DNA of 64,000 nt from Thermoplasmata archaeon (lineage in GTDB: Archaea; Thermoplasmatota; Thermoplasmata; Lutacidiplasmatales; UBA184), in the NCBI GenBank assembly GCA_021827405.1, contig JAKAVY010000002.1, forward strand, positions 12,464 to 76,463. The letters run 5' to 3'. A program made the translations under genes and the position numbers. A model generated the notes under the pieces. The model saw only the letters and a program-made list of their open reading frames with translations. It ran no database searches and had not been told where the DNA came from. Positions 1,769-62,924 of the stretch are shown here, piece by piece. Numbering within the stretch: the stretch's first letter is position 1; each line of letters begins with the position of its first letter.

Positions 1769-2908
1769 CTAGCTCCTCTCCCGGCCCTCTGAGGGGGCAG
1801 ACCGCACGGACCCGGTCGACCGGATGGACTGGTTCAGCGCGACCTCTGCGATGGTCCCGCAGAGGTGTCGCGCCGTCCCCATCCCCCAGGCGAACATGGC
1901 GAGGGAGGCGGTCTGGCGACGGGGAAGTCGGGCCCTGGCGAGGGCCAACTCCGTCTGCCGGAGGGAGCGCTGCGCCTCCTCTTGCGAACGGAGGACCCGA
2001 TGGGCGAGAGCGCTGTCTTCCCGCAGCAGGGAGCGGGAGGCATCCGTCACCATGGCTCGCAACGCCTCCAGATGTGAGCAGAGGTCCCTACGGAGACGCG
2101 GCGGTATCTCCCGGCCCTCGAGCCCGTCCCCGAGCGCGGACCCGGCTCTGAAGAGCAGGTCCGCGATCTCCTCCAGGACCTTGCCGACGACCCGGCTACC
2201 GAGGAGGTCCGGGGGCTCGGAGACGTCGAGCAGGCCGGCAAGACCACTGTCCTGGTGGGCCAGCATCAACTGGCGAAGGGTAAGGGCGTAGAGCCGGTCT
2301 GCCTCCGACTCCATCTCCCTTAGTTCCTCCAGGGGGATCCGACCTTGGGTCTCCATGGCCCTGGACAGCAGTTGGGTCATCTCCGTCACCACCAGACCGG
2401 CCCGGGCAAGGATCTGGGGGATCGTGTGTCGCCGCGGGTCCACGAAGCTCTGGAGGGCGATGAGGTGCCGGTCCAGGTACACCACTTGGAGCCCAACGAG
2501 GGAGCGAGCCACCCGGGCCACCTCCTTCTGCCGGTCCCGGTCGAACCCCTTCCCGTCGGCCAGTTCGATCCGGTCGTATCCCACCACGTAGGCCCCGAAG
2601 ACGGTCCGGGCCAGGACCTCCGGCTCGGAGAAGTGGGCCTCCTCCACCCGCAATACGCGTTCCCGAAAACGAGGGGCCGGGCCGGAGCCGAACGGATCCA
2701 CCGCGAGGCGACCATCCTCCTGGCCGCAGAGCCAGACCACCGACCCCCGGGACAGGGCGTGGCGTTCCACCCAGTTCTTGGGCAAACTGACCGCGAGGGT
2801 GTGTGGCCCGGATCGGTGGAGGTGCCGGGGCGAAGGAGGGAGACCCGTCCAGGCGCGGGGGCCGGTGCGGGGGAAGGCCTTGCCCGAGGGTCTCTCCTCG
2901 ACCGGCAT
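1769..2908 (-). CDS. PhoU-domain regulator with N-terminal AbrB/SpoVT-like DNA-binding domain (archaeal phosphate-uptake-regulator-like)
   Basis: N-terminus SLPKNWVERHALSRGSVVWLCGQEDGRLAV (looped-hinge helix), followed by helical PhoU-like repeats. Start placed at the ATG near 2908; the 551-aa track ORF has an upstream low-complexity extension that was rejected. Confidence 0.55.
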   Translation of the reverse strand: MPVEERPSGKAFPRTGPRAWTGLPPSPRHLHRSGPHTLAVSLPKNWVERHALSRGSVVWLCGQEDGRLAVDPFGSGPAPRFRERVLRVEEAHFSEPEVLARTVFGAYVVGYDRIELADGKGFDRDRQKEVARVARSLVGLQVVYLDRHLIALQSFVDPRRHTIPQILARAGLVVTEMTQLLSRAMETQGRIPLEELREMESEADRLYALTLRQLMLAHQDSGLAGLLDVSEPPDLLGSRVVGKVLEEIADLLFRAGSALGDGLEGREIPPRLRRDLCSHLEALRAMVTDASRSLLREDSALAHRVLRSQEEAQRSLRQTELALARARLPRRQTASLAMFAWGMGTARHLCGTIAEVALNQSIRSTGSVRSAPSEGRERS

Positions 2909-3125
2909 GGGGGAGGAGGCTCCTTCGGCAGGCACGGTGGCCGGGGTTCCCCCGGGAGACCTTAACCCTAGCCCACGGAGGTCCTGACGGTCTTGGACCG
3001 TCTGGACCGCACGGGGAAGACCCCTCCCCCCCCTCGTCCCGGACGACCATGACGCCAGCGCGGGGATCCCCGCCCGGGACTTCCCCGGTCCCGGTGGGCG
3101 GAGGGACCTCCCTGCGGGGTCCCCC

Positions 3126-5192
3126 ATGATCCTGGCCGAGGCCCTTCTCCTGGGAGGGATGGTCCTCTTCGTAGGGGGCATGGTTGTCGCCTGGACCCGC
3201 CCGACCGCCGGTGGGGTACGCGGGTCGTTCCTCCTGGGCTCCCTTGGTTGTGCGGTCGCCGCCATCCAGGCCGTGGAGCTGCTCGTCACCGGGACGGCCC
3301 CCTCCCTGGCCATCGGGTTCCCGGGCACCACCACGGGCGTTCCCCTCCTGGCCCTCTCCATCCAGGAGGATCCCCTGTCCGCGTTCTTCCTGCTGGTGGT
3401 AGCGGTCAGCGGCGGCGCGGTCATGCTGGCCTCGGTGGGCTACGTCGACCGCTACGTCCACGAACGCCGGGGGAGGCTCGCCGGCTTGTGCAACCTGTTC
3501 CTCCTGAGCCTGGTGCTGGTCTGTACCGCCGGGACCGTCTTCCTCTTCCTGGTCGCCTGGGAGGGGATGACCCTGGTCTCCTTCCTCCTCGTGGTCCACG
3601 AGCACCACGAACCGGAGAACCGGCAGGCGGGTCTCCGGTACGTGATCATGAGCCACGCGGCCGCGACCGGTGTCATCGCCTCCCTCCTTCTCCTGGCCGT
3701 CGGGACCGGACAGGCCGGTTGGGGCGGCATCGCCCAGGGGACCGCCCGTCTGTCCCCCTGGGTACGGGACGGGGCCTTCCTCGCCGCCCTGGGAGGGTTC
3801 GGGACCAAGGCGGGGATGGTGCCGCTCCACGTCTGGCTGCCCGGCGCCCATCCGGCCGCTCCGAGCAACGTCTCGGCCCTCATGTCCGGCGTCATGGTCA
3901 AGATGGGGATCTTCGGCCTTCTCCGGGTGGTCCTGGACCTCCTGGGGGGTGGCCCCTCGTGGTGGGCCTATGCCCTCCTTGCCTTGGGGGCCCTTTCTGC
4001 CCTGGTGGGGGTCCTCTACGCCATCGTTCAGCACGACCTCAAACGCCTGCTGGCCTTCCATTCCATCGAGAACATCGGGATCATCCTGATGGGGATCGGA
4101 GCGGGGCTGCTCTTCCTGAACCTCGGGTATCCCGCCCTCGCTGCCTTGGCCTTGGCGGCCGCCCTGCTTCACACCTGGAACCACGCGTTGTTCAAGTCCC
4201 TCCTCTTCCTCGGGGCCGGGGCCGCCGTCGGCAGCACCGGGACGCGGGACCTGGAGCGGATGGGGGGGCTCATACGCCGGATGCCGGGGGTCGCCCTGGG
4301 TTTCTTGGTAGGCTCCCTGGCCATCTCGGCCCTCCCCCCGTTCAATGGCTTCGTGAGCGAATGGCTCCTCTTCCAGAGCTTCTTCGCGGCCTTCACCACA
4401 GGGTCCGCGGGGACCGAGATGACGTTCTCAGCCCTCGCCGCGGTGCTGGCCCTGACGAGTGGGCTCGCGGCCTACTGCTTCGTGAAGGCCTTCGGGATCA
4501 CCTTCCTGGCCCGTCCCCGCACTCCCGAGGCGGCGAAGGCGGCCCCCGCGCCCCGGACGCTCGTGGCCGGGATGGGGATCCTCGCGCTATTCTGCCTGGT
4601 GCTGGGAGTGGCGCCCATCCTCGCGTTGGACCTGGCGGGGGGCCCCCTCCGGGAGCTCACCGGGACCACGCTGGGTACGGGAGTCCCCTTTTCCGTGTTC
4701 TCGAGTCTGCCCGGCCCCGGTTCCGTATCCCTCCCCTTCGCCCCGGGCCTCCTCGCGCTCCTCTTGGCCGGTGTCCTCGTCGTGGCCTGGGCCTTCTGGC
4801 GTCTCCGGGGAGCACCGCAGGTCGCCCCGGGACCCACCTGGGATTGCGGGATGGATCGGCCGACCCCGCGCATGGAGTATACCGCGACCGGCTACGCCCA
4901 ACCGCTGACCAGGATCTTCCGGGATTTCTACCGTCCCCGTGACCATGAGGAACGGCGCCCGGCCCTCCAGCCGGGCTGGGGAGATCTCTCCCGGATCAAG
5001 CGCTGGGCCCGGGAGATCGAGGACCCGGTCTGGAGATGGTTCTACCTTCCCCTCTCGCAGGGGACCCTCCATCTGGCCCGAAGGACCAGCCGGCTCCAGT
5101 CGGGCCGGATCCACGCGTACCTGGCCTACATGTTCACCACTCTCGTCCTCTTGCTCCTGCTCGTCCGGGTCGTCTGGGGGGGTACCCCGTGA
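3126..5192 (+). CDS. Hydrogenase-4/complex-I antiporter-like membrane subunit (HyfB/NuoL/MrpA family)
   Basis: 688 aa, polytopic. Motifs WLPGAHPAAPSNVSALMSGVMVKMGIFGLLR and HDLKRLLAFHSIENIG are typical of NuoL/HyfB. Confidence 0.85.
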   Translation: MILAEALLLGGMVLFVGGMVVAWTRPTAGGVRGSFLLGSLGCAVAAIQAVELLVTGTAPSLAIGFPGTTTGVPLLALSIQEDPLSAFFLLVVAVSGGAVMLASVGYVDRYVHERRGRLAGLCNLFLLSLVLVCTAGTVFLFLVAWEGMTLVSFLLVVHEHHEPENRQAGLRYVIMSHAAATGVIASLLLLAVGTGQAGWGGIAQGTARLSPWVRDGAFLAALGGFGTKAGMVPLHVWLPGAHPAAPSNVSALMSGVMVKMGIFGLLRVVLDLLGGGPSWWAYALLALGALSALVGVLYAIVQHDLKRLLAFHSIENIGIILMGIGAGLLFLNLGYPALAALALAAALLHTWNHALFKSLLFLGAGAAVGSTGTRDLERMGGLIRRMPGVALGFLVGSLAISALPPFNGFVSEWLLFQSFFAAFTTGSAGTEMTFSALAAVLALTSGLAAYCFVKAFGITFLARPRTPEAAKAAPAPRTLVAGMGILALFCLVLGVAPILALDLAGGPLRELTGTTLGTGVPFSVFSSLPGPGSVSLPFAPGLLALLLAGVLVVAWAFWRLRGAPQVAPGPTWDCGMDRPTPRMEYTATGYAQPLTRIFRDFYRPRDHEERRPALQPGWGDLSRIKRWAREIEDPVWRWFYLPLSQGTLHLARRTSRLQSGRIHAYLAYMFTTLVLLLLLVRVVWGGTP

Positions 5193-6154
5193 GCCTGCGC
5201 GTGGTGGGGCCGATGGTCCTCCTCCTGCTGGAGTATGCGTTCGTTCTCGCCGTCGGCCCGCTGCTCCTTTCCCTCGGCCGCCGGGTGAAGGCCCGGAGCC
5301 AAGGCCGGACCGGCAGCCCCCTGCTTCAACCGTACCGGGACCTCTGGAAGCTCCTGGGAAAGGGCGCGATCTACTCTGACACCTCGTCCTGGTTGACGCG
5401 CTGGGCCCCCGCGGTCTCCTTCGCGGCCCTGCTGGCCGCGGTCCCGCTCATCCCCTGGCTCGTGCTTCCCGCCCCGTTGGGATACGTGGGGGACCTCATC
5501 GTCCTGGTCGGCCTCCTGGCCCTCTCCCGGTTCATCGTCGCCCTGGCCGCCTTGGATGCGGGGAGCACCTTCGGTGGAATGGGCTCGAGCCGGGACATGT
5601 GGATGGGGGCGCTGGCCGAGCCGGTCTTCCTCCTCGTGATCTTCGCTTTCGGGGGGCCCGCGGGATCCACCCAGGCTGACGTGATCGCCGCGCGCGGCGT
5701 GGCGCTCGGTCTCGGGTACCTGAGCCCTCCGCTCCTGCTCGCCGTGGTGGCCTACGTGCTCCTGCTGCTCGTGGAGACGGGTCGGCTGCCCGTGGACAAC
5801 CCTGCGACCCACTTGGAGCTCACCATGGTCCATGAGGCCCAGACCCTGGAATACACTGGGCGGGACCTCGCGTTGCTGGAGTGGGGTCAGGGCCTCAAGC
5901 TCGCCCTCATGCTCGGGTTGCTCGCCGCCCTGGCCGTTCCCTGGGGGCTCGCGACCACCTGGGGCCTCCTCTTCCTCCTGGCCGCGCTGGCCGTGACCAG
6001 TCTCAAGCTGCTCGGGGGTCATCTCTTCGTGAGCGGCCTGGAGACCCGACTGGCCAAGTGGCGGCTCTTTCGGGTCCCGGATCTCACGACCCTCGCCGTG
6101 GTCCTGGCCTTCGGGTCCCTGGCGCTGACCTACGTCGTGGGGGGGGGCGCGTGA
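5189..6154 (+). CDS. NuoH/HycD/HyfC-like membrane subunit
   Basis: PLLQPYRDLWKLLGK motif (NuoH/HycD signature). GTG start overlaps the upstream stop (GTGA at 5189-5192). Confidence 0.8.
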   Translation: MSLRVVGPMVLLLLEYAFVLAVGPLLLSLGRRVKARSQGRTGSPLLQPYRDLWKLLGKGAIYSDTSSWLTRWAPAVSFAALLAAVPLIPWLVLPAPLGYVGDLIVLVGLLALSRFIVALAALDAGSTFGGMGSSRDMWMGALAEPVFLLVIFAFGGPAGSTQADVIAARGVALGLGYLSPPLLLAVVAYVLLLLVETGRLPVDNPATHLELTMVHEAQTLEYTGRDLALLEWGQGLKLALMLGLLAALAVPWGLATTWGLLFLLAALAVTSLKLLGGHLFVSGLETRLAKWRLFRVPDLTTLAVVLAFGSLALTYVVGGGA

Positions 6155-6807
6155 CGTCGTTCGCGACCCTGGCGTTGGACCTCGCGGCGGCTTCCGCGCT
6201 GGTCACGGCCTGGATCTGCCTGGTCCACCGGAGGATCACGGCGCTCGTGGACACCTACGCCGTCCAGTCCGCCTCGCTGGCGGTCACCGAAGGCCTCATT
6301 GCCTACCTCTACTCCGCTCCGGACCTGTACCTCCTGGCGCTCCTTACCTTCGTCGTGAACGCCCTGGTCCTCCCCGGGGTCCTGCGCCGGGTGGTCCGGG
6401 CCCTGCGGGTGAACCGCATGGTGAACACCTATGCCTCCGTGCGCGTGAGCGCCCTCGCTGGCCTGGGCCTGCTTCTCTTGGCCATCCTGGTGGTCGGACC
6501 CGTCGTCCCGTATGCGGAGGTCTCCTCCGCCGGTCTCCTGCCCATCGCCACGGCCATCCTGCTCATCGGCTTCTTCCTGCTCATCAGCCGGGAGAAGGCG
6601 GTCACCCAGGTAGTGGGCCTCCTGGTGATGAACAACGGCATCCTCCTCGCCGGGATCGCGCTTACCTACGGACTCGGCCTCTTCGTGGAACTGGCCCTGG
6701 CGGCGAACCTCCTGGTGCTGGCCATCGTGGCGCGGATCTTCCTCGCACGCATGAAGGAGTCCTTCGACCACGTAGACGTCGACGCGCTGCGCTCGCTCGA
6801 GGGATGA
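6151..6807 (+). CDS. HyfE-like small membrane subunit (NuoK-related)
   Basis: 218 aa with about 6-7 TM helices, in the position and size of HyfE. GTGA overlap at 6151-6154. Confidence 0.65.
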   Translation: MTSFATLALDLAAASALVTAWICLVHRRITALVDTYAVQSASLAVTEGLIAYLYSAPDLYLLALLTFVVNALVLPGVLRRVVRALRVNRMVNTYASVRVSALAGLGLLLLAILVVGPVVPYAEVSSAGLLPIATAILLIGFFLLISREKAVTQVVGLLVMNNGILLAGIALTYGLGLFVELALAANLLVLAIVARIFLARMKESFDHVDVDALRSLEG

Positions 6808-8297
6808 TCCGGATGATCGAAGGCCCCTTCTGGATGCTGGCCCTGCTTCTGACCCCGCTGGTGGGAGGGGGACTGGTCTGGGTCTCCCGGACCCGGGCCC
6901 AGCTCAATGCCTCGGCGGCGGCCACGGGGGCGGCCTCCTTCGGGTTCCTGCTCTTTGTTTTGGACCAGGTCCTTGCCACTGGACCCACTTTCGCGGTCGG
7001 GGGTCTCCTTTACGTCGACGCCCTCTCGGGGCTGCTCCTGCTCGTCATCACGCTCGTGGGATTGGCGAGCCTGCTCTATTCCATCGACTACCTGGGCCGC
7101 AGCGGAAGCCCGCACGAGGCCTCCGTTCCTCGCCTTCGCCGATACTACGGACTGGTTCTTCTCTTCCTCTTCACCATGTACCTCGTTTCAGAGGCCAACA
7201 ACCTGGGGCTGCTGTGGACCGCCCTGGAGGGGACCACCCTTGTCTCCGCGCTCATGGTCGGCTATTACCAGACCCGCCGGGCCCTGGAGGCATCGTGGAA
7301 GTACCTCATCCTCTGCAGCGCCGGACTCGCCTTCGCCCTGTTCGGGACTCTCCTGCTCTACCTGGCGTCGATCCGGGCCCTGGGATCCGGGGCCTCCGGG
7401 CTCGATTGGACCACCCTCGTCCAGGCCGGCGGACATCTGGACCCGGGGCTGGTCCAACTGGCCTTGGTCTTCCTTTTCGTGGGCTACGGGACCAAGGCGG
7501 GGCTGGCCCCGCTCCACAACTGGCTCCCGGACGCCCACTCGGAGGCCCCCACCCCGGTCTCGGCCCTGCTCTCAGGCGCGCTCTTGAACTGCGCCATGTA
7601 CGCGTTGATCCGGGTAGACGCCATCACGTTAAGGATCCCGGGATTCACGTTGACCCATTGGCTCCTGCTGATCTTCGGTTTGAGCTCGGTCTTCGTCGCC
7701 GCCTTGTTCATCCTCGTCCAGCACGACCTCAAGCGTCTGCTCGCCTACCACTCCGTGGAGCACATGGGGATCATCACCCTAGGGCTCGCCTTTGGTGGGT
7801 TCCTGGGCGTCTTCGGCGCCCTGTATCACCTGCTCAACCATGCGGTCACCAAGGCCGCGCTCTTCCTCATTGGCGGAAACCTCGCCCTCCAGGCCCAGAC
7901 GAAGGACCTCGAACAGATCCAGGGTGCGCTCGCCGCCGTGCCCGCCACCGCGATCGCGCTCCTGCTCGGAGGCCTCGCCCTGGGGGGGGTCCCACCCTTC
8001 TCCGTCTTTGCCAGCGAGTTCGTCATCCTCACCGCGGGGTTCACCGATGGGAATGCCTGGGGGGCGATCCTCCTTCTCGTGGCCCTGGCCATCGTTTTCG
8101 CCGGGCTCATTGGCCATTTGGTCCACATGCTGTTCGGGGGGAACCCCTCCCGGCACTATCTCCCCGGACTGCGCCGTGCGGTGGGGGCTTCGATCGGCGT
8201 AGGGCTCCTTATGGCCCTGGCGCTTGGGCTGGGACTGTTCCTGCCCAACCCGCTCTCCCAGCTCTTGCACGGGGCCGTCCAGGCGGTGAACGGATGA
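6804..8297 (+). CDS. Antiporter-like membrane subunit (HyfF/NuoM/NuoN family)
   Basis: WLPDAHSEAPTPVSALLSGALLNCAMYALIR and HDLKRLLAYHSVEHMG motifs. ATGA overlap at 6804-6807. Confidence 0.85.
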   Translation: MIRMIEGPFWMLALLLTPLVGGGLVWVSRTRAQLNASAAATGAASFGFLLFVLDQVLATGPTFAVGGLLYVDALSGLLLLVITLVGLASLLYSIDYLGRSGSPHEASVPRLRRYYGLVLLFLFTMYLVSEANNLGLLWTALEGTTLVSALMVGYYQTRRALEASWKYLILCSAGLAFALFGTLLLYLASIRALGSGASGLDWTTLVQAGGHLDPGLVQLALVFLFVGYGTKAGLAPLHNWLPDAHSEAPTPVSALLSGALLNCAMYALIRVDAITLRIPGFTLTHWLLLIFGLSSVFVAALFILVQHDLKRLLAYHSVEHMGIITLGLAFGGFLGVFGALYHLLNHAVTKAALFLIGGNLALQAQTKDLEQIQGALAAVPATAIALLLGGLALGGVPPFSVFASEFVILTAGFTDGNAWGAILLLVALAIVFAGLIGHLVHMLFGGNPSRHYLPGLRRAVGASIGVGLLMALALGLGLFLPNPLSQLLHGAVQAVNG

Positions 8298-9940
8298 GCC
8301 CGCCTGCCCAGGAAGGAGAGGAGACCCCCCTTCCCCCTGTGGGGACCCGCCCCCCGCTCCCGGTGGACCGGAACCGTCCGGACCGGGTCGAGGAAGAGAG
8401 GACCCTGGGCGCGTTAGGAGCCGGCCCGGTGACCTGGTTGGAGGGCGAAGGCCTGTGGGCCCTGTCCGTAGACCCCGAGCGATGGCCGGCCATCTGCCGT
8501 TGCATATCCGAGGTGATGCACCACCCGCTCTCCACCCTCTTCGGCGAGGAGGCCCACGGGGGGATCCGGCTGCACGCGCTGTTCCTCGGCCACGACCCCA
8601 CTCCCGGGGTCCATGTCCGCTGTCCGCTGCACCCCGGCGTACTCTCAGCTCCTTCCCTCGCAGCCACCATCCCCTTCGTGGCCCCCTTCGAACGGGAGGT
8701 GGCGGAGATGTTCGGTGTCACCTTCCTAGGGGCCATGGACCGTCGACCGCTTCTCCTGCACGAGAGACACTCGGCCCCACCCCTGCGAAAAGGCCCTCCG
8801 GCCACCCCCACGGGTGAGCTGGAACCCTACGTCTTCCCGCCGGTGGAAGGGGAAGGGGTCTACGAGATCCCCGTGGGTCCGGTACATGCCGGCGTCATCG
8901 AGCCCGGCCACTTCCGTTTCCAGGCCGTGGGGGAGGAGATCCTCGATCTCGAGGTCCGCCTCGGGTACACCCACAAGGGCACGGAGCGCCTCTTCGAGGG
9001 GCAGCCGGTGGCCCGGGGCACCCTCTGGGCGGAGTCCATCTCCGGGGACATGTCCGTTGCGGGGGGAGTCGCCTACGCGCACGCGGCCGAACGGGCCCTG
9101 GACTCCCGGGTTCCGGCGGTCACGGAGGCCGCGCGCGGGCTCCTGCTGGAGCTGGAACGCATCGCGTTCCTCTGCGGAGACGTTGCGGGGATCTCCCTGG
9201 ATGTGGGCTACGCGGTGGGGGCGGCACGGGCCAACCGCCTCCGGGAACGGACCTACGCCGGGCTCCGGTCCCTCACCGGCTCCCGCCTGGGGCGCGCCAT
9301 CGTGGGAGTGGGCGGATTCCGCCGGCCACTCGTGCTGGGCGACCCGGCCGAACTGATCCTGACCCTTCGGGAGACCTCGGCCCGTATCCAGGCCCTCCGG
9401 GACCATCTTCTGGACAAGTCTTCGGTGGTGGACCGGCTCCAGGGAACCGGGATCATTCACCGGTGGACCGCCGAGCTGCTGCATTTCCTCGGACCTACCG
9501 CCCGGGCCTCCGGGCTCAGGATCGACCTCAGGGTGGACCGTCCGTACGGGCCGTACCGAGACGTGGAGGTCCATGTCCCGCGCGGTCTCCAGGGGGATGT
9601 GCAGGATCGCCTCACCGTCAAGGTCGACGAGGTGGTGGAGGCTTGCCGCCTTTCCGAGACCTTCCTAGGCCGCCTCGGGCAAGGGATCCCCCCGGCGCCT
9701 GCCACGCCTCCGCCCCCCGGGGAACCGCGCGAGGGACTCGGCTGGGTGGAATCCCCGCGCGGCGAGTTCCTCGTCTACCTCGCGCTCGCTCCTGACGGTA
9801 CCTTGGGACGGGTCCATGTCCGGGACCCCTCGTTCCTCACGTGGCCCGCCATCGAACAGGCCGTCCGAGGGAACATCGTCCCGGACTTTCCCCTGTGCAA
9901 CAAGAGCCTGAACCTCTCGTATTCGGGGTACGACCGATGA
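8294..9940 (+). CDS. NuoC-NuoD fusion / [NiFe]-hydrogenase large-subunit homolog (HycE/HyfG-like) lacking the NiFe-binding cysteines (Ehr-type)
   Basis: N-terminal NuoC-like domain (EREVAEMFGVTFLGAMDRRPLLL). NuoD/HycE-like core (PVGPVHAGVIEPGHFRF). The L1 motif RxCGxCxxxH is replaced by SISGDMSVAGG. The C-terminal DPCxxCxxR is replaced by DFPLCNKSLNLSYSGYDR. ATGA overlap at 8294-8297. The 908-aa track ORF is an upstream read-through. Confidence 0.85.
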   Translation: MSPPAQEGEETPLPPVGTRPPLPVDRNRPDRVEEERTLGALGAGPVTWLEGEGLWALSVDPERWPAICRCISEVMHHPLSTLFGEEAHGGIRLHALFLGHDPTPGVHVRCPLHPGVLSAPSLAATIPFVAPFEREVAEMFGVTFLGAMDRRPLLLHERHSAPPLRKGPPATPTGELEPYVFPPVEGEGVYEIPVGPVHAGVIEPGHFRFQAVGEEILDLEVRLGYTHKGTERLFEGQPVARGTLWAESISGDMSVAGGVAYAHAAERALDSRVPAVTEAARGLLLELERIAFLCGDVAGISLDVGYAVGAARANRLRERTYAGLRSLTGSRLGRAIVGVGGFRRPLVLGDPAELILTLRETSARIQALRDHLLDKSSVVDRLQGTGIIHRWTAELLHFLGPTARASGLRIDLRVDRPYGPYRDVEVHVPRGLQGDVQDRLTVKVDEVVEACRLSETFLGRLGQGIPPAPATPPPPGEPREGLGWVESPRGEFLVYLALAPDGTLGRVHVRDPSFLTWPAIEQAVRGNIVPDFPLCNKSLNLSYSGYDR

Positions 9941-10803
9941 CGTCCCGCCCGGACCTGCGTACGGTTGTCTCTGCGGCGGCTCCCGCCGGCCGTTCGGCAC
10001 GGGATGAGAGCCAGACCCTCCGCTACCCCCTCGGACCCCTACCGGTCCTGCCACGTCCTTGGCGGACCCCCCGACACGATGCGGGGCGCTGTGACGGCAC
10101 CGGGGCCTGCGCGACGGCATGCCCCACCGGGGCTCTCGAGGTCACCAGCACCGGTGGCCAGGACCGGGTGACGCTGGACTACGGGAAGTGCCTCTTCTGC
10201 TCACTCTGCGTGGATGCGTGTCCCTCCGGGGCCATGACCTCCACCCCGTTCGAGGAGCTCTCCGTCCGCCGACGGGGGGACCTGATCGCTGTCCACCCGT
10301 CCGTTGCGTCGCTCAACCCCTCCGACGAGCTCAGGCGCGAGGTGGCCACAAGTGTGGGCCGCCTCTTCGCGGGGTCCCTATCGATCCGGGCGGTGGACGC
10401 GGGCAGTTGCAATGGCTGTGAGGTCGAGGTGGGAGCGCTCCTTTGGCCCCGGTACGACCTGGAACGGCTGGGGATCCACCTGGTGGCTTCGCCGCGACAC
10501 GCGGATGCCCTCTTGGTCACGGGCCCGGTCACGCGCAACATGCGCCAGGCACTGGAGAAGACCTATCGTGCCGTCCCTCCTCCTCGATTTGTGCTGGCCG
10601 TCGGAGCGTGCGGGATCTCCGGCGGGCCCTTCGCCGGTTCGGCCGAGGTAGAGGGGGGGGTGGACCGGGTACTTCCCGTCGAGGTCTACATCCCGGGGTG
10701 CCCTCCCTCGCCGGTGGCTCTGCTCCACGGGTTGTGGCTCGCCCTCGGCAAGGTCGAACAACGGATGGTCCGGGGGGAGTTCTCCTCAGGGATCCCACCG
10801 TAA
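9937..10803 (+). CDS. Fusion of 2x[4Fe-4S] ferredoxin (NuoI/HycF-like) and NuoB/HycG-like small subunit
   Basis: KCLFCSLCVDACP (canonical) plus an atypical RCDGTGACATACP. Then the NuoB signatures SCNGCE, GACGISGGPF and YIPGCPP. ATGA overlap at 9937-9940. Confidence 0.85.
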   Translation: MTSRPDLRTVVSAAAPAGRSARDESQTLRYPLGPLPVLPRPWRTPRHDAGRCDGTGACATACPTGALEVTSTGGQDRVTLDYGKCLFCSLCVDACPSGAMTSTPFEELSVRRRGDLIAVHPSVASLNPSDELRREVATSVGRLFAGSLSIRAVDAGSCNGCEVEVGALLWPRYDLERLGIHLVASPRHADALLVTGPVTRNMRQALEKTYRAVPPPRFVLAVGACGISGGPFAGSAEVEGGVDRVLPVEVYIPGCPPSPVALLHGLWLALGKVEQRMVRGEFSSGIPP

Positions 10804-11033: not shown

Positions 11034-12158
11034 GTGCGCCAACACGTGGAGGATGCGCTCCGGCGTCTCAGAGAGCAGGTCCGGAGGGTGGACACGGAGC
11101 TCCAACGGGCGATCCGCCGTCGTCTGAGGCTCGCCTTGGCGATCGGGAAGGCCAAGCGTTCCCGAGGGCAACCGCTACGGGATTATTCGATCGAGAGGGA
11201 GGTGGTCCGTCGATGGCGTTCGGGGCTTAAGACGGCCGGGGTCCAGGGGGACCGGGCGGAGGATCTGGCCCGGTGGATGGTCGAAGAGTCTGTCCGTGTC
11301 CAGGACTCCCTCGGGCCAATCCCGGAAGTGAGGACGGCGGGCACCGACGCCCTTGTCATCGGCGGAGCCGGAGGCATGGGGACCTGGTTGGCAAGCTTTC
11401 TTCACGCCGTCGGTCACCGGGTGGCGATCCTGGATCCCGCCGCCGACGGGCCCTCCCATGCGGGCTTCCCGGTCCGGACCGACCTGCCGGATGCGGCCGC
11501 GGAAGCCGGCTTGGTGGCCGTGACAACCCCCATGAGGGTCGCCCCGGCCGTCTACCGGGAGCTCTGGCGAACGGGAACCAAGGCCGTGGTCTTCGATGTG
11601 CTGTCGGTAAAGGCGCCCCTCATCCCGTGGATCCGACGCGGCGTGAGGGAAGGGTTCCAAGTGGGCAGCATCCATCCGCTCTTCGGCCCGGCGGTCCGAT
11701 CCCTGACCGGACGAAACCTGCTCGTGGTGGATTGCGGCGTCCCGGAGGCGAACCGACGTATCGAGGGACTCTTCTCCAAGAGTTCGGTGAAGGTCTCTAG
11801 GATCCCGCTGCGTTACCATGACCCGTGGATGGCGGACGCGCTTGCCCTCCCCCATGCGGTCAGCCTGGCCTTCGGGCTCGCCCTCGGGCCGGGGCTTGGC
11901 ACCCGCGGGCCACGGTCGGACCGGGTCCCCACGTCCTTCCTTCGGCAGGCGGAAGCGGCCCGGGTGGTCAGCCGTGAGAACCCGGAGCTATCCTTCGACA
12001 TCCAGAGCTTGAATCCCCACGTGGCCCCGATGTACGCCCGGCTCGAGAAGAGTCTCCGCCAGCTCCGACGGGCGGCGGAGAAGGAGGACCCGATCGAATA
12101 TCGTCGGCTGATGCGCCGGGTCAGGGCCCGCTTTCCGGGGGAGTCCAGGTCCTCCTAG
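11034..12158 (+). CDS. tyrA: Bifunctional chorismate mutase / prephenate dehydrogenase (T-protein-like)
   Basis: N-terminal AroQ chorismate mutase helix pattern (RLREQVRRVDTELQRAIRRRLRLALAIGKAK). Rossmann motif LVIGGAGGMGTWLA plus a prephenate dehydrogenase core. Confidence 0.8.
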   Translation: MRQHVEDALRRLREQVRRVDTELQRAIRRRLRLALAIGKAKRSRGQPLRDYSIEREVVRRWRSGLKTAGVQGDRAEDLARWMVEESVRVQDSLGPIPEVRTAGTDALVIGGAGGMGTWLASFLHAVGHRVAILDPAADGPSHAGFPVRTDLPDAAAEAGLVAVTTPMRVAPAVYRELWRTGTKAVVFDVLSVKAPLIPWIRRGVREGFQVGSIHPLFGPAVRSLTGRNLLVVDCGVPEANRRIEGLFSKSSVKVSRIPLRYHDPWMADALALPHAVSLAFGLALGPGLGTRGPRSDRVPTSFLRQAEAARVVSRENPELSFDIQSLNPHVAPMYARLEKSLRQLRRAAEKEDPIEYRRLMRRVRARFPGESRSS

Positions 12159-15143: not shown

Positions 15144-17969
15144 ATGGGAGGGAGCCGGCGGGCATCCACGTCGAGACCCGGGGGTCCGCTTTGGAGGAGA
15201 GGGTTGTCGCCCCCACGTCGAGGCAAGCCCGCATTCGGCCGCGGATGCGGTGAGCCGGCCCCGGGCCCGAAACATGCGGTCGCCCTGCTCGGACTGATCG
15301 GCCTCCTCCTGGTTTCGGGATCGGCCCAGGGTCTGTTCGCGCCGGCGGAGCCCCTCTCGCGGGAGGCGGGGTCCGGTGCCCCCGGACATTCGGTCCTCCC
15401 TTCCCTGAGCGGCCGTCCCGCGCCCTCACGGCCGTCCGTCCCCGGGAAGGAGGCCACGACCAGACCCTTCGTCACCCCACCGACACCGATGTTCCGGGCC
15501 GGCCCTGAACCTCCCGTCTCCCCTCGGACGGGCATCGCGCATGCGAGCGGCACCGTCCTCTACGTGTCCCCCTCCGGCTCCAACGGGAACCCGTGTACCG
15601 CGACCGAGCCGTGCCGGCAGATCAACACCGCCGTAGACCGGGCCGCCCCGGGAGACACCGTGCTCGTGGCTAACGGGACGTACCTGGGCTTCGAACTGGA
15701 CGGGACTCACGGTGAGCCGGGCGCCCCGATCATCATCACCGACCCCGGCCACGACGCCGTGATCGAGACCAACGGGTCCTGCTGTAACTGGACCAGCCAG
15801 GGAGAGCAGGACCAGATGTACTTCAACCAGGTCTCCTGGGTGGTGGTCAACGGGCTCCGCAGCTACCAGATCCAATCCACCGTCCCTACCGCGAACCTCT
15901 GGGTGAGTCAGAGCAACAATCTCACGCTGAGCAATCTGACCTTCGAGAACGGCACCTACGTGAATGCCTCCACCGGGTGGCCGAGCAAGGCCAGCCTTTT
16001 CCTGGACCTCTCCACGAACATCACCATCGAGTATGACAACATCTCGGGGGCCAAGGGGTCCCATGGGATCTACTTCAACAACGACGGCCTGCCGTTGACC
16101 TACGGCGATGTGATCCGGAACAACATCCTCGACGATAACAATTGGACGGGGGTCCAACTGGTCTACGCCAGCCACTGCCAGGTGGAGGACAACGTGCTCG
16201 CCGGTAACGGGGCGGGGGGGGCCGCAGGGATCAGCCTTCGCGAAGTGGTGGACTCGGAGGTCCTGAACAATTTGGTCTATGACGAACTGGGGGCGGGCCT
16301 CAGCATCGTGGAGGATGCCTCCCCGGCGGGGGGAACGCAAACCTCGGGGAATCTCATCGCCTACAACACGGTGGTGGTGGGGGCAGCCGGGCGGGCCGCT
16401 CTCATTGTGGGGGCCGGATCCACGGGACCCGGGAATGTCCTGAGGGACAACATTCTCTACACGGAGGACAACGCCGTCTGGCCCTCTCTTGACTTCCAGG
16501 GCTCCAGCGGGACCGCAGACCTGGTGGGGGACCACAACGTGCTTCAATCTGTGGAAGACCCCAACGGAAGCTACTCCCTGGCCCAGTGGCAGTCCCTGGG
16601 CTACGAGAACGGTTCCCTCTCCGCCACCCCGTCGGAGCTCTTCGTCAACGCCACCCAGGGGGACTACCAGCTCGCTCCTCTATCCCCTGCGACGAACGCC
16701 GGCATCGCGATTCCCTCCGTGACCAGCGATATCCAGGGTGACCCACGTCCCGTCTCCGGGTCTTCGGACATCGGTTGCTATGAGAGCGCGAGTCCCTCGC
16801 TCCGGGCCGTGGCCTCGGCCTACCCGGGGAACGGGACCGCCCCTTTGACCGTGACCTTCACGGGCACCGGCTCCGGTGGGAGCGCTCCCTACCGCTACGA
16901 ATGGACCTACGGGGATGGGACCGCCCCCTCTCAGGCTGCCGACCCGCAGCACACGTACAACACCAGCGGCTCCTTTCCCGTGGAACTGACCATCGAGGAC
17001 GCCCGGGGGGGACTGGCCCACGCCTTCCTGAACGTCAGCGTGACGGCCCCCATCCCCTTCTCGGTCCAAATTCAAGCCAACCTCTCCGGTCCCACCGCGG
17101 GCGAGCCCGTGTTCTTCACCGGAGGGGCCTCGGGAGGGACTCCACCGTACTCCGGTTGGGATTGGACCTTTGGCGACGGCTCGACGGCCACGGGTCAGAA
17201 TGTCTCCCACGCGTTCACGAACCCCGGGAACTATAGCGTGGCTCTGAAGGCCACGGACTCACGGGATCGCACGGCCAACGCGTCCTTCCACCTCCAGGTT
17301 TGGGCTCAGCCAACCCTCGCCGTCTCCCTCCAGACCAATGTCACGAGCCTTCCGCTGGGGAGGGCGGTGGCGGTCTCGACCACGGTCAGCGGGGGGACCG
17401 GGCCGTACACGGTCCAGTACGCCGGCCTCCCCCCCGGTTGTGGCGGGGAGAGCGCCTTGGCCTTCTCCTGCGAGCCCGCACAGGCTGGCCATTACAACAT
17501 CACCGCGAAGGTGACGGACACGGTCGGCCGCGCTGGCCAGAGCCCTCCGGCCCCGCTATACGTCCAGGTTCCGTTGTTCCCCCTCTCCGTTCACCTGGAG
17601 ATCTCCTCCCCTTCGGTCCCGGCCGGCACCCTCGTGACGCTGACCTCGATCTCGTCGGGTGGGAGCGGGGGGCCCTTCTCTTACTCCTGGTCCGGACTCC
17701 CGGCGGGGTGCACGAACCTCGACGAGCCATCCCTGGACTGCGTTGTGTCGACCCCAGGGTCCTACCACATTTCCGTCCGGGTCACGGATGCCCAGGGGCA
17801 ATCCAACGCCAGCCAGCCGGTAGGTCTGGTGGTGGCGCCGTCCAAGGCACCTTCCCCGGGTGAGCCCTTCGGTCCCGAAGTGGTCTTCTCCATCACGGCC
17901 CTGATCGCAGGTGCGGTCGTGGTCGCCGGCGTGTATGTTCTACGCCGACGTGCGAGAGGGGCCCACTGA
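15144..17969 (+). CDS. Large secreted surface (S-layer-like) glycoprotein: parallel beta-helix (pectin-lyase fold) + PKD/Ig-like domains + C-terminal TM anchor
   Basis: Signal-peptide-like HAVALLGLIGLLLVSGSAQG. NGTY/NNLTLSNLTFENGTYVNAS beta-helix repeats. PKD motif (TAPLTVTFTGTGSGGSAPYRYEWTYGDGT). C-terminal VVFSITALIAGAVVVAGVYVLRRRAR. Very many N-x-S/T sequons. Start codon uncertain. Confidence 0.75.
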   Translation: MGGSRRASTSRPGGPLWRRGLSPPRRGKPAFGRGCGEPAPGPKHAVALLGLIGLLLVSGSAQGLFAPAEPLSREAGSGAPGHSVLPSLSGRPAPSRPSVPGKEATTRPFVTPPTPMFRAGPEPPVSPRTGIAHASGTVLYVSPSGSNGNPCTATEPCRQINTAVDRAAPGDTVLVANGTYLGFELDGTHGEPGAPIIITDPGHDAVIETNGSCCNWTSQGEQDQMYFNQVSWVVVNGLRSYQIQSTVPTANLWVSQSNNLTLSNLTFENGTYVNASTGWPSKASLFLDLSTNITIEYDNISGAKGSHGIYFNNDGLPLTYGDVIRNNILDDNNWTGVQLVYASHCQVEDNVLAGNGAGGAAGISLREVVDSEVLNNLVYDELGAGLSIVEDASPAGGTQTSGNLIAYNTVVVGAAGRAALIVGAGSTGPGNVLRDNILYTEDNAVWPSLDFQGSSGTADLVGDHNVLQSVEDPNGSYSLAQWQSLGYENGSLSATPSELFVNATQGDYQLAPLSPATNAGIAIPSVTSDIQGDPRPVSGSSDIGCYESASPSLRAVASAYPGNGTAPLTVTFTGTGSGGSAPYRYEWTYGDGTAPSQAADPQHTYNTSGSFPVELTIEDARGGLAHAFLNVSVTAPIPFSVQIQANLSGPTAGEPVFFTGGASGGTPPYSGWDWTFGDGSTATGQNVSHAFTNPGNYSVALKATDSRDRTANASFHLQVWAQPTLAVSLQTNVTSLPLGRAVAVSTTVSGGTGPYTVQYAGLPPGCGGESALAFSCEPAQAGHYNITAKVTDTVGRAGQSPPAPLYVQVPLFPLSVHLEISSPSVPAGTLVTLTSISSGGSGGPFSYSWSGLPAGCTNLDEPSLDCVVSTPGSYHISVRVTDAQGQSNASQPVGLVVAPSKAPSPGEPFGPEVVFSITALIAGAVVVAGVYVLRRRARGAH

Positions 17970-60371: not shown

Positions 60372-62924
60372 GTGAACGCCCGCACGCTTGCCCTCGCGGC
60401 CCTGGTCGCTGGTCTGGCCCTTTCGTCGATCCTCCCGGGAGCCTTCGCCCAGGCCGCTCCCGGGAGTGCCCCGTCGCCCTTGACGACGGCCCGGAGCGCC
60501 GCCGCCTGCAACGTGAGCCCGAACCCGACCCTTCAGGTGTACTCCGGCCTGGACGCCGGTGGGGGGTTCGTGTCCCACTGCACGTTCAACCCAGGTGCCT
60601 GGACGGGGGAGAACGCGGTCTACTTCGAGATCTTCGACGGGGCGAAGGACCGCCAGGCGAACGTCACCCTGTTGGACCCTAATGCCACGGCCGACGGGTT
60701 GACCAACCCCGTGGCGCGCGCGACGGTGCCCCTGAGCCCCGCGGGGCCGGTGACGACCTTCGATAGCACCCAGAGCCTGCCGCCCCTCGGGCTGGCCATC
60801 CCGGCCTCGGTCCCCCAGTCCGGGACCTGGTGGCTCAACGTGACCACCGGGCCGGGCGCGAACCATACCACGCAGGTGCCCATCTCGGTGGACACGTTCT
60901 ACGTGGACCTGCAGGTCTCCGTCCCGGCCCCCCTGCCGGGAGCCACCGTGAGCGCGAACTTCCAGGTCCTCTCCTATGCCAGCGGGGGACCGGTCTCGCC
61001 GGCTCCCGCCCTGCGTCTCAAGGGCTGTGCCTACGAGAACGGGAACGCCACCTGCCAGCCGCTGCAGGACCTTCCCGTCCTCTCGGCGGAGAGCCAGGGG
61101 GCGTTCTCCTTCCTCCTGCCGGTGAACGCCACCAACTTCACCTCCCCCCGGATCACGCTCACGGCGAACCTGACCGCGGCGGGCCGGAGCTTCAGCGCGA
61201 CGGGCAGCGCTTCCTTCACCGTGCTCGCCCTAGACCCGCCGATCCTCTGTGCCTCGGACTCCCTGACCTATCTTCCGCTCACCTTCCCCGGATACTGTTA
61301 CCAACCGACGAGCACTTACACCGTGGGACAGCCGGTCTTCTTCGGGGTGCTGGCCGCGCTGGGGGACCCCTCGCTGGGGTACGTGGACACCCCCCTGGCC
61401 GGGGCCCCGGTGGACTTGAGCTACTCCCTGAACGGGCAACCGGTCGCCTCTCCGGCGCTTCCCCAGAACCTCACCACGGACTCCTCCGGGGCCGGGCTCC
61501 TGGTCCTTCCCACCGGCGGCCTCTCTCCCGGGGTGTTCTCCCTCCATGTGGAGGTCCAGACGCCCGGGGCCCCGGTCTTCAGCCAGAGCCGGGTCCTCAA
61601 CGTGACCCTGGTCTCCCCGATCGCCCCCGTCTCCCTGGTCCTCACCTTCAACCAGACGGTCTACGCTCCGGGGAGCACGGTCACCGGCCGGTTCTCCATC
61701 GTCAACGAGACCACAGGAGGGGCGCCGCCAGCCGGCTGGACCGCGTTCTACTACCAGGTCTACAGCTTTCCGAGCACGTCGTACTGCTCCGGGACCCCGC
61801 TCGTGGTATTGAGCGCGGGGAACCTCACCGGGGCTTCCGGGGCCCTCCCCCCCGTGTCTCTGGCCCCGTCGCTCCGGGGGAGCCTCTTGGTCCTGGTGGA
61901 GGCCCATAATGGGACCTTCCTGGCGCCCCCCGGGGCGGAGAGCTCCAGTTGTCTAGTGGTGCGTGCCCCGGGGATCAACCTTCTGGTGAGCGATGCCTCC
62001 TACGGGCCAGGCTCCACCGTCCAAGTGGTCCTTGCCCCGGTAGGCAGCCCCTTCTCCGGGGATACCTACCAGATCACGGTGGAGGCCTCGCCCGGGTCCG
62101 CTCCCGCTCCTCTCCCGGTGATCTACCAGGCGAACTCCACGACCCCCTGGTTCAGCTTTGTCATCCCCCGGGCGGGCACCGCGTCGAGCTACCAGATCAA
62201 CGCCGTGGTCCTAGGCCCCGGCCGGACGGTCCTGGCAGTCTCCTCCACCACGATCTACGAGTACGTGGGGATCAACCTGGTCCTGGGCGTCACCACCCTT
62301 TCCCACTACAGCGACGGTTCGTTCCAACCGGGAGAGACGATCACGGTGAGCTACCAGCTGGTGTCCGAGGGTGGGTACGTCCTGCAGGGGCCCTACCTGT
62401 TGGAGTATGGCTTCTACGACCAGGTGAACTACCAATCCGCCGTCGTCTCGGCGCCCTCGGGGACCTTTAGCGTGACGATCCCGGGGAGCGCCGGCAACGG
62501 GCTCTTGTTCTTGCAGGTCTACGGGTCGGGGCCGGCGCTGGTGGGCAGCGCGAGCTTCTCGGCGACTTCCGGGGTACTGGTGAACGGGCAGCCCTCCAGC
62601 CTCGCCTACGAGATCGTCCCCGGCAGCGGGTTCACCGCCGGACTGCTCTTGCTCCTCGTGCTCCTGGTGGTGGTGGGCCTCATGGCCTACGTACTTTACC
62701 GCCGGGCCACCTACGGCCGGCGACGGGGAGGCGGGGGGCACTTCGAGACGGAGCATGGACCGAAAGGAGAGGTGCTCCCGCCGGCGCCCTCCTCCGGGGG
62801 GGCCCCTCGGGACCCCTCCCCGGTCCAGGGCCCGGCCCCTGCGCCCGGCCCTTCCGCGCCCGAGGACTCCCCGGTGGAACCCCCGGTCTCCGCGAGCCCC
62901 TCCCCGCAGGACTATGTAGAGTGA
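60372..62924 (+). CDS. Large secreted surface (S-layer-like) glycoprotein with C-terminal TM anchor
   Basis: Signal peptide MNARTLALAALVAGLALSSILPGAFAQA. More than 25 N-x-S/T sequons (NVS, NAT, NHT, NGT, NFT, NLT...). C-terminal LLLLLVLLVVVGLMAYVLYRR followed by a Pro/Ser-rich cytoplasmic tail. Confidence 0.7.
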   Translation: MNARTLALAALVAGLALSSILPGAFAQAAPGSAPSPLTTARSAAACNVSPNPTLQVYSGLDAGGGFVSHCTFNPGAWTGENAVYFEIFDGAKDRQANVTLLDPNATADGLTNPVARATVPLSPAGPVTTFDSTQSLPPLGLAIPASVPQSGTWWLNVTTGPGANHTTQVPISVDTFYVDLQVSVPAPLPGATVSANFQVLSYASGGPVSPAPALRLKGCAYENGNATCQPLQDLPVLSAESQGAFSFLLPVNATNFTSPRITLTANLTAAGRSFSATGSASFTVLALDPPILCASDSLTYLPLTFPGYCYQPTSTYTVGQPVFFGVLAALGDPSLGYVDTPLAGAPVDLSYSLNGQPVASPALPQNLTTDSSGAGLLVLPTGGLSPGVFSLHVEVQTPGAPVFSQSRVLNVTLVSPIAPVSLVLTFNQTVYAPGSTVTGRFSIVNETTGGAPPAGWTAFYYQVYSFPSTSYCSGTPLVVLSAGNLTGASGALPPVSLAPSLRGSLLVLVEAHNGTFLAPPGAESSSCLVVRAPGINLLVSDASYGPGSTVQVVLAPVGSPFSGDTYQITVEASPGSAPAPLPVIYQANSTTPWFSFVIPRAGTASSYQINAVVLGPGRTVLAVSSTTIYEYVGINLVLGVTTLSHYSDGSFQPGETITVSYQLVSEGGYVLQGPYLLEYGFYDQVNYQSAVVSAPSGTFSVTIPGSAGNGLLFLQVYGSGPALVGSASFSATSGVLVNGQPSSLAYEIVPGSGFTAGLLLLLVLLVVVGLMAYVLYRRATYGRRRGGGGHFETEHGPKGEVLPPAPSSGGAPRDPSPVQGPAPAPGPSAPEDSPVEPPVSASPSPQDYVE

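Follow-up and report, generated by a model that had tools for sequence, protein, structure and literature searches.

A seven-cysteine ferredoxin domain fused to NuoB in a predicted Ehr complex of a Thermoplasmata archaeon

A fused small subunit with three predicted iron-sulfur sites

The last gene of a six-gene operon in a Thermoplasmata archaeon encodes a ferredoxin domain and a NuoB-like module on one polypeptide of 288 amino acids. The operon lies in a 64,000-nucleotide stretch of contig JAKAVY010000002.1 (positions 12,464 to 76,463 of the forward strand; assembly GCA_021827405.1), which we refer to as the window and to which all coordinates below belong. The best explanation for the observations as a whole, to which we assign a probability of roughly 0.6, is that this protein is the small subunit of an energy-converting hydrogenase-related (Ehr) complex, that it carries three iron-sulfur sites in a row, and that the outermost of these, cluster I, is probably a [3Fe-4S] cluster in a ferredoxin domain of the 7Fe type.

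The gene for the fused subunit (gene 6; 9937 to 10803, forward strand) specifies a HycF/NuoI-type ferredoxin domain that is preceded by an N-terminal extension and joined by a linker to a NuoB/HycG-type module. Pfam identifies a Fer4 dicluster domain at residues 45 to 100 (Fer4 E = 1.3e-11, Fer4_7 E = 1.8e-11) and Oxidored_q6 at residues 158 to 266 (E = 8.3e-29), while NCBIfam models of the HycF/HyfH/NuoI kind match residues 22 to 118 and NuoB models match residues 155 to 276. Together with the continuous frame, these matches bear out the initial annotation of this DNA, which had described a ferredoxin domain with two cluster motifs and a complete NuoB module behind it, both in one polypeptide. 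The four cysteines attributed to the NuoB part are indeed all present, C158 and C161 in SCNGCE, C225 in GACG, and C255 in GCPP. They are the predicted ligands of the proximal [4Fe-4S] cluster in the module (residues 146 to 277; 10372 to 10767, forward strand), where the first two have the C-x2-C spacing typical of hydrogenases.

The cysteine ligands of the ferredoxin domain across the family

In dicluster ferredoxins, cluster I is held by the first three cysteines of motif 1 (CysI to CysIII) and the fourth cysteine of motif 2 (CysIV), and cluster II by the other four cysteines (PMC2946596). The second motif of the fused subunit (10189 to 10224, forward strand) is canonical, as had been noted, and reads C85-L-F-C88-S-L-C91-V-D-A-C95-P; C85, C88, and C91 would bind cluster II and C95 cluster I. 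The first motif (10090 to 10125, forward strand) reads C52-D-G-T55-G-A-C58-A-T-A-C62-P, with C52 and C58 expected to bind cluster I and C62 cluster II in the usual cross-ligation. It had been reported to lack its second cysteine, and this is correct with one refinement: the spacing C-x2-X-x2-C-x3-CP is normal, and only CysII is replaced, by Thr55. The domain therefore has seven cysteines instead of the eight that two complete CxxCxxCxxxCP motifs would supply, and it has the pattern of 7Fe-type ferredoxins, in which motif 1 is CxxXxxCxxxCP, with X not a cysteine, and motif 2 is canonical.

To place these residues in the family we used two comparisons, one with the best 120 protein clusters, and one with a one-genome-per-species collection in which at least 600 stretches matched the pattern and the best 80 loci were kept. 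Eight cysteines are invariant in all 120 homologs: C62 (along with P63), C85, C88, and C91 of the predicted cluster II, and C158, C161, C225, and C255 of the NuoB module. The ligands of cluster I, on the other hand, vary as a set, with all four present in 4 homologs, three (CxCC) in 36, none in 79, and an odd combination in 1. The joint loss of C52, C58, and C95 is what the cross-ligated topology of dicluster ferredoxins predicts. About 19 of the 80 genome loci have likewise lost every cluster I ligand and kept those of cluster II and the NuoB cluster. At the level of predicted ligands, this distribution shows a family-wide pattern in which the outer cluster is variable and the inner cluster and NuoB cluster are invariant.

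Within this pattern the lineage of the window is coherent. Among the closest 37 sequences, 36 have C-x2-[not Cys]-x2-C-x3-CP, and a cysteine at position II is found only in cluster P0021. The residue that replaces CysII in these 36 seven-cysteine members is threonine in 19, serine in 6, alanine in 3, and glycine in 3, with aspartate, valine, asparagine, glutamate, and glutamine once each; C52, C58, and C95 are nonetheless kept in all 36, at a divergence that reaches down to about 54% identity. Judged by its predicted ligands, the missing CysII is thus a lineage-wide trait, and it is the only distinctive feature of the locus. Neither the lineage-wide seven-cysteine domain nor the pattern of a variable outer cluster has been described, as far as we searched.

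The subunits that have lost cluster I altogether include fused forms from Acidobacteria, Verrucomicrobia, and Thaumarchaeota (found in P0038 to P0120, and at genome loci such as L001 to L005, L029, and L035). In such proteins motif 1 has become W..A..A...CP, the CysIV position of motif 2 is occupied by serine, aspartate, threonine, or a gap, and many carry an insertion of 25 to 60 amino acids at the joint between the two domains. Four loci (L049, L050, L067, and L072) have residues other than cysteine at some positions of the NuoB cluster in the automated alignment, which may reflect misalignment or real degeneration.

The nature of cluster I

Cysteines retained at three positions, with free drift at position II, are the hallmark of a [3Fe-4S] cluster. 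Ferredoxins with the motif CXX?XXC(X)nCP and threonine, serine, asparagine, histidine, tyrosine, or phenylalanine at the variable position have all been isolated with a [3Fe-4S] cluster, including one example with CXXTXXC (PMC6237146). In the abundant zinc-containing ferredoxins (Zn-ferredoxins) of Sulfolobus and Thermoplasma, cluster I is of the [3Fe-4S] and cluster II of the [4Fe-4S] type, and the missing corner of the former has been tied to the replacement of CysII; at −280 mV, this cluster I is also the one that is physiologically reduced (PMC2946596). On the strength of these parallels, the ferredoxin domain of the fused subunit is somewhat more probably than not of the 7Fe type, with one [3Fe-4S] and one [4Fe-4S] cluster, the type to which the major ferredoxins in aerobic thermoacidophilic archaea belong. 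The initial annotation had asked which residue could supply the fourth ligand of cluster I. Its premise that the motif truly lacks CysII stands, but the question presumes a [4Fe-4S] cluster, whereas the classic [3Fe-4S] pattern needs no fourth ligand.

A [4Fe-4S] cluster I held by three cysteines and one residue of another kind is unlikely by comparison, although it has a specific candidate ligand in His47 (H-x4-C52; codon at 10075 to 10077, forward strand), a lineage-specific residue five positions before CysI of motif 1; Asp53 or the hydroxyl of Thr55 would be less likely choices. A cluster ligated by His47 would resemble the histidine-ligated distal clusters of [NiFe]- and [FeFe]-hydrogenases and cluster N5 of complex I, and such ligation of hydrogenase [4Fe-4S] clusters is established (PMC6237146). 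The histidine is present in 34 of the 37 closest sequences, and the equivalent residue in the 80 other loci is hydrophobic or small (I/L/V/F/Y/M/A). On a neighbor-joining tree it has been lost in two independent events. One is in P0021, where CysII is present in 8 of 8 members of the cluster, and the other is in the pair P0017 and P0007, of which P0017 has aspartate at position II. A cysteine or aspartate thus occupies position II in two of the three sequences without the histidine versus none of the 34 with it (hypergeometric P of about 0.005, phylogeny ignored). The covariation nevertheless amounts to two events only, and P0007, with alanine at position II, has neither the histidine nor any ligand-competent residue there. 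The AlphaFold2 model places His47 at the end of a β-strand formed by residues 44 to 47. In clostridial ferredoxin structures, this −5 position ends the core β-strand between the two clusters. The CysII corner, by contrast, faces the solvent in dicluster ferredoxins (PMC2946596), and it is as [3Fe-4S] proteins that ferredoxins with threonine or serine at position II have been isolated. As for the acidic residue at position 53, we set it aside as a compensating ligand, because aspartate or glutamate is also common at this second position of the motif in relatives with eight cysteines.

We consider it improbable that the site of cluster I holds no cluster or is in decay. The protein would then represent a transitional stage toward the single-cluster forms, with electrons entering at cluster II or with a ferredoxin wire that is no longer needed. 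The 79 homologs and roughly 19 genome loci that lack cluster I ligands and retain cluster II and the NuoB cluster are the evidence in favor, as are the Hyq-type relatives, which have a plain NuoB with no ferredoxin domain at all (PMC3357923); taken together, these losses imply that cluster I is dispensable in the family. Where it has truly been lost, however, all three remaining cysteines have been replaced together (by W, A, and S or D), while C52, C58, and C95 persist in every one of the 36 seven-cysteine members. The retention of exactly the three ligands of a [3Fe-4S] cluster points to purifying selection on a bound cluster.

The operon encodes an Ehr-type complex

Ehr complexes resemble group 4 [NiFe]-hydrogenases from which the CxxC motifs are missing (PMC6349859, PMC10284858, PMC10432482). 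The operon of the fused subunit extends from 3126 to 10803 on the forward strand, and all five of its junctions are 4-nucleotide overlaps of stop and start codons (GTGA twice and ATGA three times); the six genes are evidently translated as a unit, which couples the fused subunit in translation to the large subunit and to three or four membrane subunits of the complex I superfamily. Gene 1 (3126 to 5192, forward) encodes a NuoL/HyfB-like membrane subunit of the antiporter type with 688 amino acids (Pfam Proton_antipo_M, E = 1.6e-50), and its stop codon overlaps the next start in GTGA. Gene 2 (5189 to 6154, forward) encodes a NuoH/HycD-like membrane subunit (Pfam NADHdh, E = 5.1e-31); its GTG start is placed by the 4-nucleotide overlap, and the maximal open reading frame (ORF) begins at 5036. 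The product of gene 3 (6151 to 6807, forward), with 218 amino acids, is a small HyfE-like membrane subunit with a weak Oxidored_q2 match (E = 0.0038), which agrees in position and size with the third gene of four related loci, the Thermoplasmata loci L081, L082, and L083 and the Chloroflexi locus L023. Gene 4 (6804 to 8297, forward) is flanked by ATGA on both sides and encodes a second antiporter-type subunit, NuoM/N/HyfF-like and 497 amino acids long (Pfam Proton_antipo_M, E = 9.1e-54, and Proton_antipo_N). Gene 5 (8294 to 9940, forward) encodes the large subunit, a HycE-like fusion of NuoC and NuoD with 548 amino acids (Pfam Complex1_30kDa and Complex1_49kDa). The same six genes occur in identical order in all four related loci.

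The identity of the complex rests on Pfam and PDB comparisons of the large subunit. Its best PDB match is HycE (7z0s_E, E = 4.4e-46), and in the alignment VCGICG of HycE corresponds to ISGDMS and DPCYSCTDR to NLSYSGYDR, so that serine, methionine, serine, and glycine stand at the positions of the four [NiFe] cysteines. Neither the L1 (RxCGxCxxxH) nor the L2 (DPCxxCxxH/R) motif of group 4 [NiFe]-hydrogenases is found. The cysteines are also lost from the large subunits of L081, L082, and L083, and more widely from 74 of the 77 large subunits that adjoin fused small subunits, with three Chloroflexi loci keeping them. A large subunit that has lost its [NiFe] ligands places the complex in the Ehr family, and the loss of the site further implies that the complex neither makes nor consumes H2. 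The remaining traits of the family are present as well: NuoL-, NuoH-, HyfE- (by a weak Pfam match), and NuoM/N-like membrane subunits alongside NuoCD-like large and NuoB-like small subunits, a large subunit free of N- and C-terminal CxxC, and a small subunit with the four cysteines for the proximal [4Fe-4S] cluster. In Geobacter, the ehr cluster has a NuoL-like EhrA, a HyfE-like EhrC, EhrL, and EhrS (PMC7894505), and by homology the operon matches these named subunits. The initial annotation had framed the protein against complex I and formate hydrogenlyase (FHL), a framing that does not survive the loss of [NiFe] ligands from the partner large subunit; by sequence comparison the complex is an Ehr family member, neither a hydrogenase nor complex I.

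Complex I is excluded by features of both subunits. In the small subunit the tandem cysteines that bind cluster N2 are missing: the mitochondrial PSST sequence CCAVE aligns with GCEVE, and the first cysteine lies three residues upstream (C158-N-G-C161), while SCNGCE as a whole aligns with the SCNGC/GCNGC of MbhJ and HycG, so that the C-x2-C is that of a hydrogenase. In the large subunit, the positions of Nqo4 His38 and Tyr87 (Thermus thermophilus numbering), which we take to be the quinone-head ligands of complex I, are occupied by Ile202 and Gly251 in an ungapped alignment with 2fug_4, counted by hand. With both head-group ligands not conserved, a quinone site of the complex I type was rejected.

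A reading of the complex as a true group 4 [NiFe]-hydrogenase of the FHL/Hyf or Ech kind, with the fused protein as its small subunit, is very improbable. The best PDB sequence matches are hydrogenase subunits (HycE, HycG, and MbhJ), the NuoB module has the C-x2-C just described, and three Chloroflexi loci (L023, L039, and L067) do pair a fused small subunit with a large subunit that has all four cysteines, L023 with the same six-gene layout and a NiFeSe_Hases Pfam match. Yet the four cysteines are replaced both here and in the three other Thermoplasmata loci, and hyp maturation genes were not found among the window ORFs scanned; on the HycE alignment we rejected a true hydrogenase for this locus.

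The three Chloroflexi proteins also lack CysII in motif 1, with aspartate in its place in L023 and alanine in L039 and L067. Since their [NiFe] cysteines are intact, the seven-cysteine state appears to have arisen more than once and not to be restricted to Ehr complexes.

The fusion is genuine and common

That the ORF is an artifact, with a frameshift, a mis-assembly, or a wrong start merging two genes, can be dismissed with near certainty: beyond the general possibility, the one circumstance in its favor is that the maximal ORF could begin at a GTG at 9841, within the upstream gene, and against it stand the continuous frame, identical and near-identical 288-amino acid proteins from several independent assemblies, fused homologs that exist in thousands, an ATG at 9937 that agrees with homolog N-termini and with the 4-nucleotide overlaps of the operon, and a whole-chain AlphaFold2 model with a predicted template modeling score (pTM) of 0.81.

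The frame is free of stops from 9937 to 10803, and its ATG shares ATGA (9937 to 9940) with the TGA of gene 5. Public collections hold an identical 288-amino acid protein whose 90% identity cluster has 9 members, each of 288 amino acids and drawn from several independent assemblies, and homologs at 59% to 76% identity have equal length and architecture. A mis-called start or frameshift that would resolve into two separate ORFs had been named as what would overturn the fusion; from the homolog lengths, the 90% cluster, and the junction overlaps, this was rejected. The model, built from an alignment of 120 sequences, has a confident two-domain fold (mean predicted local distance difference test score, pLDDT, of 83.8), with low confidence only at residues 1 to 20 and at the domain joint, residues 122 to 127.

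The two halves do correspond to separate chains in the solved structures of FHL and complex I, as had been stated, and also in that of Mbh: HycF, NuoI, and MbsN match residues 23 to 119, and MbhJ and HycG match residues 142 to 282 (for the NuoB module, MbhJ 6cfw_J at E = 1.1e-41 and HycG 7z0s_G at E = 2.3e-40). Foldseek superimposes the model on 6cfw_J with a target-normalized TM-score (template modeling score) of 0.91 and a root mean square deviation of 1.9 Å. We found no single-chain equivalent of ferredoxin plus NuoB in the PDB, against which Foldseek aligns the NuoB half only. The remark that a fusion fixes the stoichiometry of the electron-input wire is true but trivial.

What did not hold is the description of the fusion as unusual. 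A search for other NuoI-NuoB fusions, the check proposed at the outset, returned the fused form in all of the best 120 protein clusters, at 259 to 324 amino acids, and the match covers both domains in each of the best 80 genome loci. The nearest named clusters come from metagenome-assembled genomes of Thermoplasmata/Thermoplasmatota (59% to 76% identity), followed by bacteria at about 50%. Among the 600 pattern-matched stretches listed from species-representative genomes, at least 597 encode relatives, and the best 80 loci span Acidobacteria, Planctomycetes, Verrucomicrobia, Geobacterales, Chloroflexi, Firmicutes, Alpha- and Betaproteobacteria, Omnitrophota, Nitrosopumilaceae, Thermoproteota, and others. 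With a Geobacter-type query the best 120 clusters were also fused (237 to 256 amino acids). A query with the N-terminal 140 amino acids alone against the representative genomes retrieved mostly polyferredoxins and unfused proteins of HycF/NuoI size, and no new seven-cysteine relatives. By these comparisons, a small subunit made as one ferredoxin-NuoB chain is the rule in the Ehr lineage and among its hydrogenase sisters. JGI labels these proteins 'Ni,Fe-hydrogenase III small subunit/formate hydrogenlyase subunit 6', and in the literature we found no paper that explicitly describes a NuoI-NuoB fusion; the fusion is known to databases rather than to the literature.

A proposed path for electrons

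By homology to FHL, Mbh, and complex I, the fused subunit could work as a complete input wire, with three sites in series on one chain: outer cluster I (C52, C58, C95), inner cluster II (C62, C85, C88, C91), and the [4Fe-4S] cluster of NuoB, which would be proximal and face the pocket of the large subunit. Reduced soluble ferredoxin, the likely donor, would give electrons to cluster I. From there the electrons would travel through cluster II and then the NuoB cluster and reach an acceptor located where the large subunit, NuoB, and the NuoH-like subunit meet. The same homology suggests that the reaction would be coupled to ion translocation through the NuoH-like subunit and the two antiporter-like subunits. 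Which cluster lies where is suggested by the family itself: many members have lost cluster I and retain just cluster II along with the NuoB cluster, and a one-cluster wire must keep the cluster next to NuoB, which argues for cluster I as the distal entry site and cluster II as the neighbor of the NuoB cluster. The FHL structure paper gives no listing of which HycF cysteines bind cluster F1 and which F2 (PMC9474812), and a literature search for the ligands of N6a and N6b in Nqo9 yielded no usable assignment.

Several considerations weigh against this account of an Ehr small subunit with a [3Fe-4S] entry site. A cluster type is not readable from sequence, and a [4Fe-4S] cluster with water or a residue other than cysteine as ligand is possible; the conservation of His47 in 34 of 37 sequences, with cysteine or aspartate at position II in two of the three that lack it, is how a compensating ligand would look. 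The distal assignment of cluster I comes from evolutionary logic and not from coordinates. In none of the four Thermoplasmata loci does the operon have a donor module (formate dehydrogenase, carbon monoxide dehydrogenase, or NuoEFG) or a gene for a ferredoxin next to it. The quinone-ligand positions of complex I are not conserved (Ile202, Gly251), the name EhrS is linked to the fused form through homology to Geobacterales genomes only, and in the literature we found no experiments on Ehr complexes that have a fused subunit.

Comparison with known systems

The closest parallels are other Ehr complexes, such as those of G. sulfurreducens (GSU0739-45), Nitrospira, Margulisbacteria, and ammonia-oxidizing archaea, which have in common the six-gene layout and a large subunit without CxxC. 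Geobacterales genomes carry the same fused small subunit (about 252 amino acids) beside a large subunit lacking the cysteines. The archaeal protein is about 42% to 54% identical to bacterial Ehr forms, and differs from those of Geobacterales, Planctomycetes, and Verrucomicrobia, which have eight ferredoxin cysteines, in having seven together with the conserved His47. In Azorhizobium caulinodans, the 'endo-hydrogenase' Hyq (hyqBCEFGI) has six genes in the same order, and HyqG is a NuoC::D fusion without either CxxC; its HyqI, however, is a plain NuoB homolog (Cys55, 58, 112, and 152) with no ferredoxin domain (PMC3357923).

The likeness to E. coli FHL (7Z0S/7Z0T) extends over both domains, since HycG aligns with residues 142 to 277 (E = 2.3e-40) and HycF with residues 25 to 117 (E = 1e-10); the order of the iron-sulfur relay (F1, F2, G1) and the N-terminal extension of the ferredoxin part are also conserved (PMC9474812). 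FHL differs in that HycF and HycG are two chains, HycF has eight cluster cysteines and, unlike the protein here, a Cys4 metal site at its C-terminus, HycE has its [NiFe] site, and the complex includes a HycB/FdhF donor module. In the Mbh and Mbs complexes of P. furiosus (6CFW, 6U8Y), MbhJ is the best match to the NuoB half in both sequence and fold, and these complexes are ferredoxin-fed, ion-translocating relatives of complex I, as the Ehr complex here may be. MbhJ and MbhN are separate proteins, though, the membrane module is larger and of the Mrp type, and Mbh is a true hydrogenase. Complex I shares homologous folds in NuoI (Nqo9/TYKY) and NuoB (Nqo6/PSST), with two ferredoxin clusters followed by one NuoB cluster, but its subunits are separate, its NuoB has the tandem CC where C-x2-C is found here, and the His38 and Tyr87 of its NuoD are isoleucine and glycine in this complex.

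More distant parallels concern single domains. The 7Fe Zn-ferredoxins of Sulfolobus and Thermoplasma lack CysII in motif 1 and have a canonical motif 2, as here (PMC2946596). They are free soluble carriers with a zinc site, however, and have aspartate at position II in place of the variable threonine or serine; the homology is limited to the ferredoxin core. FrhG, the gamma subunit of the F420-reducing hydrogenase, also has a small-subunit module of the Oxidored_q6 type and Fer4 on one chain (weak matches), but in the reversed order (Fer4 at 174 to 218 of 228 in the model) and as part of a soluble group 3 hydrogenase.

Neighboring genes

A gene for a PhoU-domain protein (1769 to 2950, reverse strand; Pfam PhoU, E = 2.9e-6) diverges from the operon; its start is uncertain, and the maximal ORF reaches 3424. 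Such a gene adjoins the operon in all four Thermoplasmata-type loci, where it was the only conserved gene when the neighbors were considered as candidate electron donors. The copies are 32% to 55% identical in pairwise comparison, and their placement varies: upstream and divergent in the window and in L081 (415 to 1983, reverse), immediately downstream on the same strand in L082 (10953 to 12101, forward) and L083 (10909 to 12042, forward). The L083 copy has a weak AbrB/MazE-like match as well. The protein is possibly a regulator of the operon or an accessory subunit.

About 2 kb upstream of the operon lies a pair of genes for a nickel superoxide dismutase (619 to 1158, reverse) and an S26 peptidase (1203 to 1634, forward); the former has the N-terminal sequence HCDIPCGIYDP and a Sod_Ni match in Pfam (E = 1.2e-43), and the latter is probably a maturation protease of the SodX type. 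The pair suggests that the host is exposed to oxygen, and we might speculate that a surface [4Fe-4S] cluster would be a liability to such a host. Directly downstream of the operon is a gene for a bifunctional chorismate mutase/prephenate dehydrogenase (11034 to 12158, forward), which appears unrelated because it is not conserved there in L081, L082, and L083.

Elsewhere in the window, which has a GC content of 69.5% and contains archaeal markers (diphthamide synthase, HMG-CoA reductase, PAC2), two long ORFs stand out by a high GC content at third codon positions. One (15144 to 17969, forward; 941 amino acids) probably encodes a surface glycoprotein, given its many N-x-S/T sequons and a hydrophobic stretch at the C-terminus; the other (60372 to 62924, forward; 850 amino acids) has no Pfam match. 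Proteins with PKD domains flank the homologous operons in L081, L082, and L083.

Implications for Ehr complexes

Apart from a modest cofactor variant, the locus is ordinary for the Ehr family, and its correct annotation is Ehr, not FHL or complex I, with an ordinary fusion. Across the family only the outer cluster site varies, so that the outer cluster should be the point at which Ehr complexes dock their partners and are tuned. The [3Fe-4S] reading makes a simple prediction in terms of iron content: a subunit with 11 Fe and a [3Fe-4S] signal in electron paramagnetic resonance (EPR) in the Thermoplasmata, versus 12 Fe in Geobacter and 8 Fe in Acidobacteria.

A broader and doubtful proposal is that the entry cluster of the Thermoplasmata Ehr complex has been rebuilt, either as a His47-ligated [4Fe-4S] cluster or as a proton-coupled [3Fe-4S] cluster flanked by His47 and Asp/Glu53, and tuned to higher-potential 7Fe ferredoxins and to exposure to oxygen. 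The family series that runs from eight ferredoxin cysteines to seven, to a single ferredoxin cluster, and to no ferredoxin domain at all in Hyq would then record repeated shedding and retuning of the ferredoxin input. If true, this series would bear on the function of Ehr complexes, which is an unsolved question.

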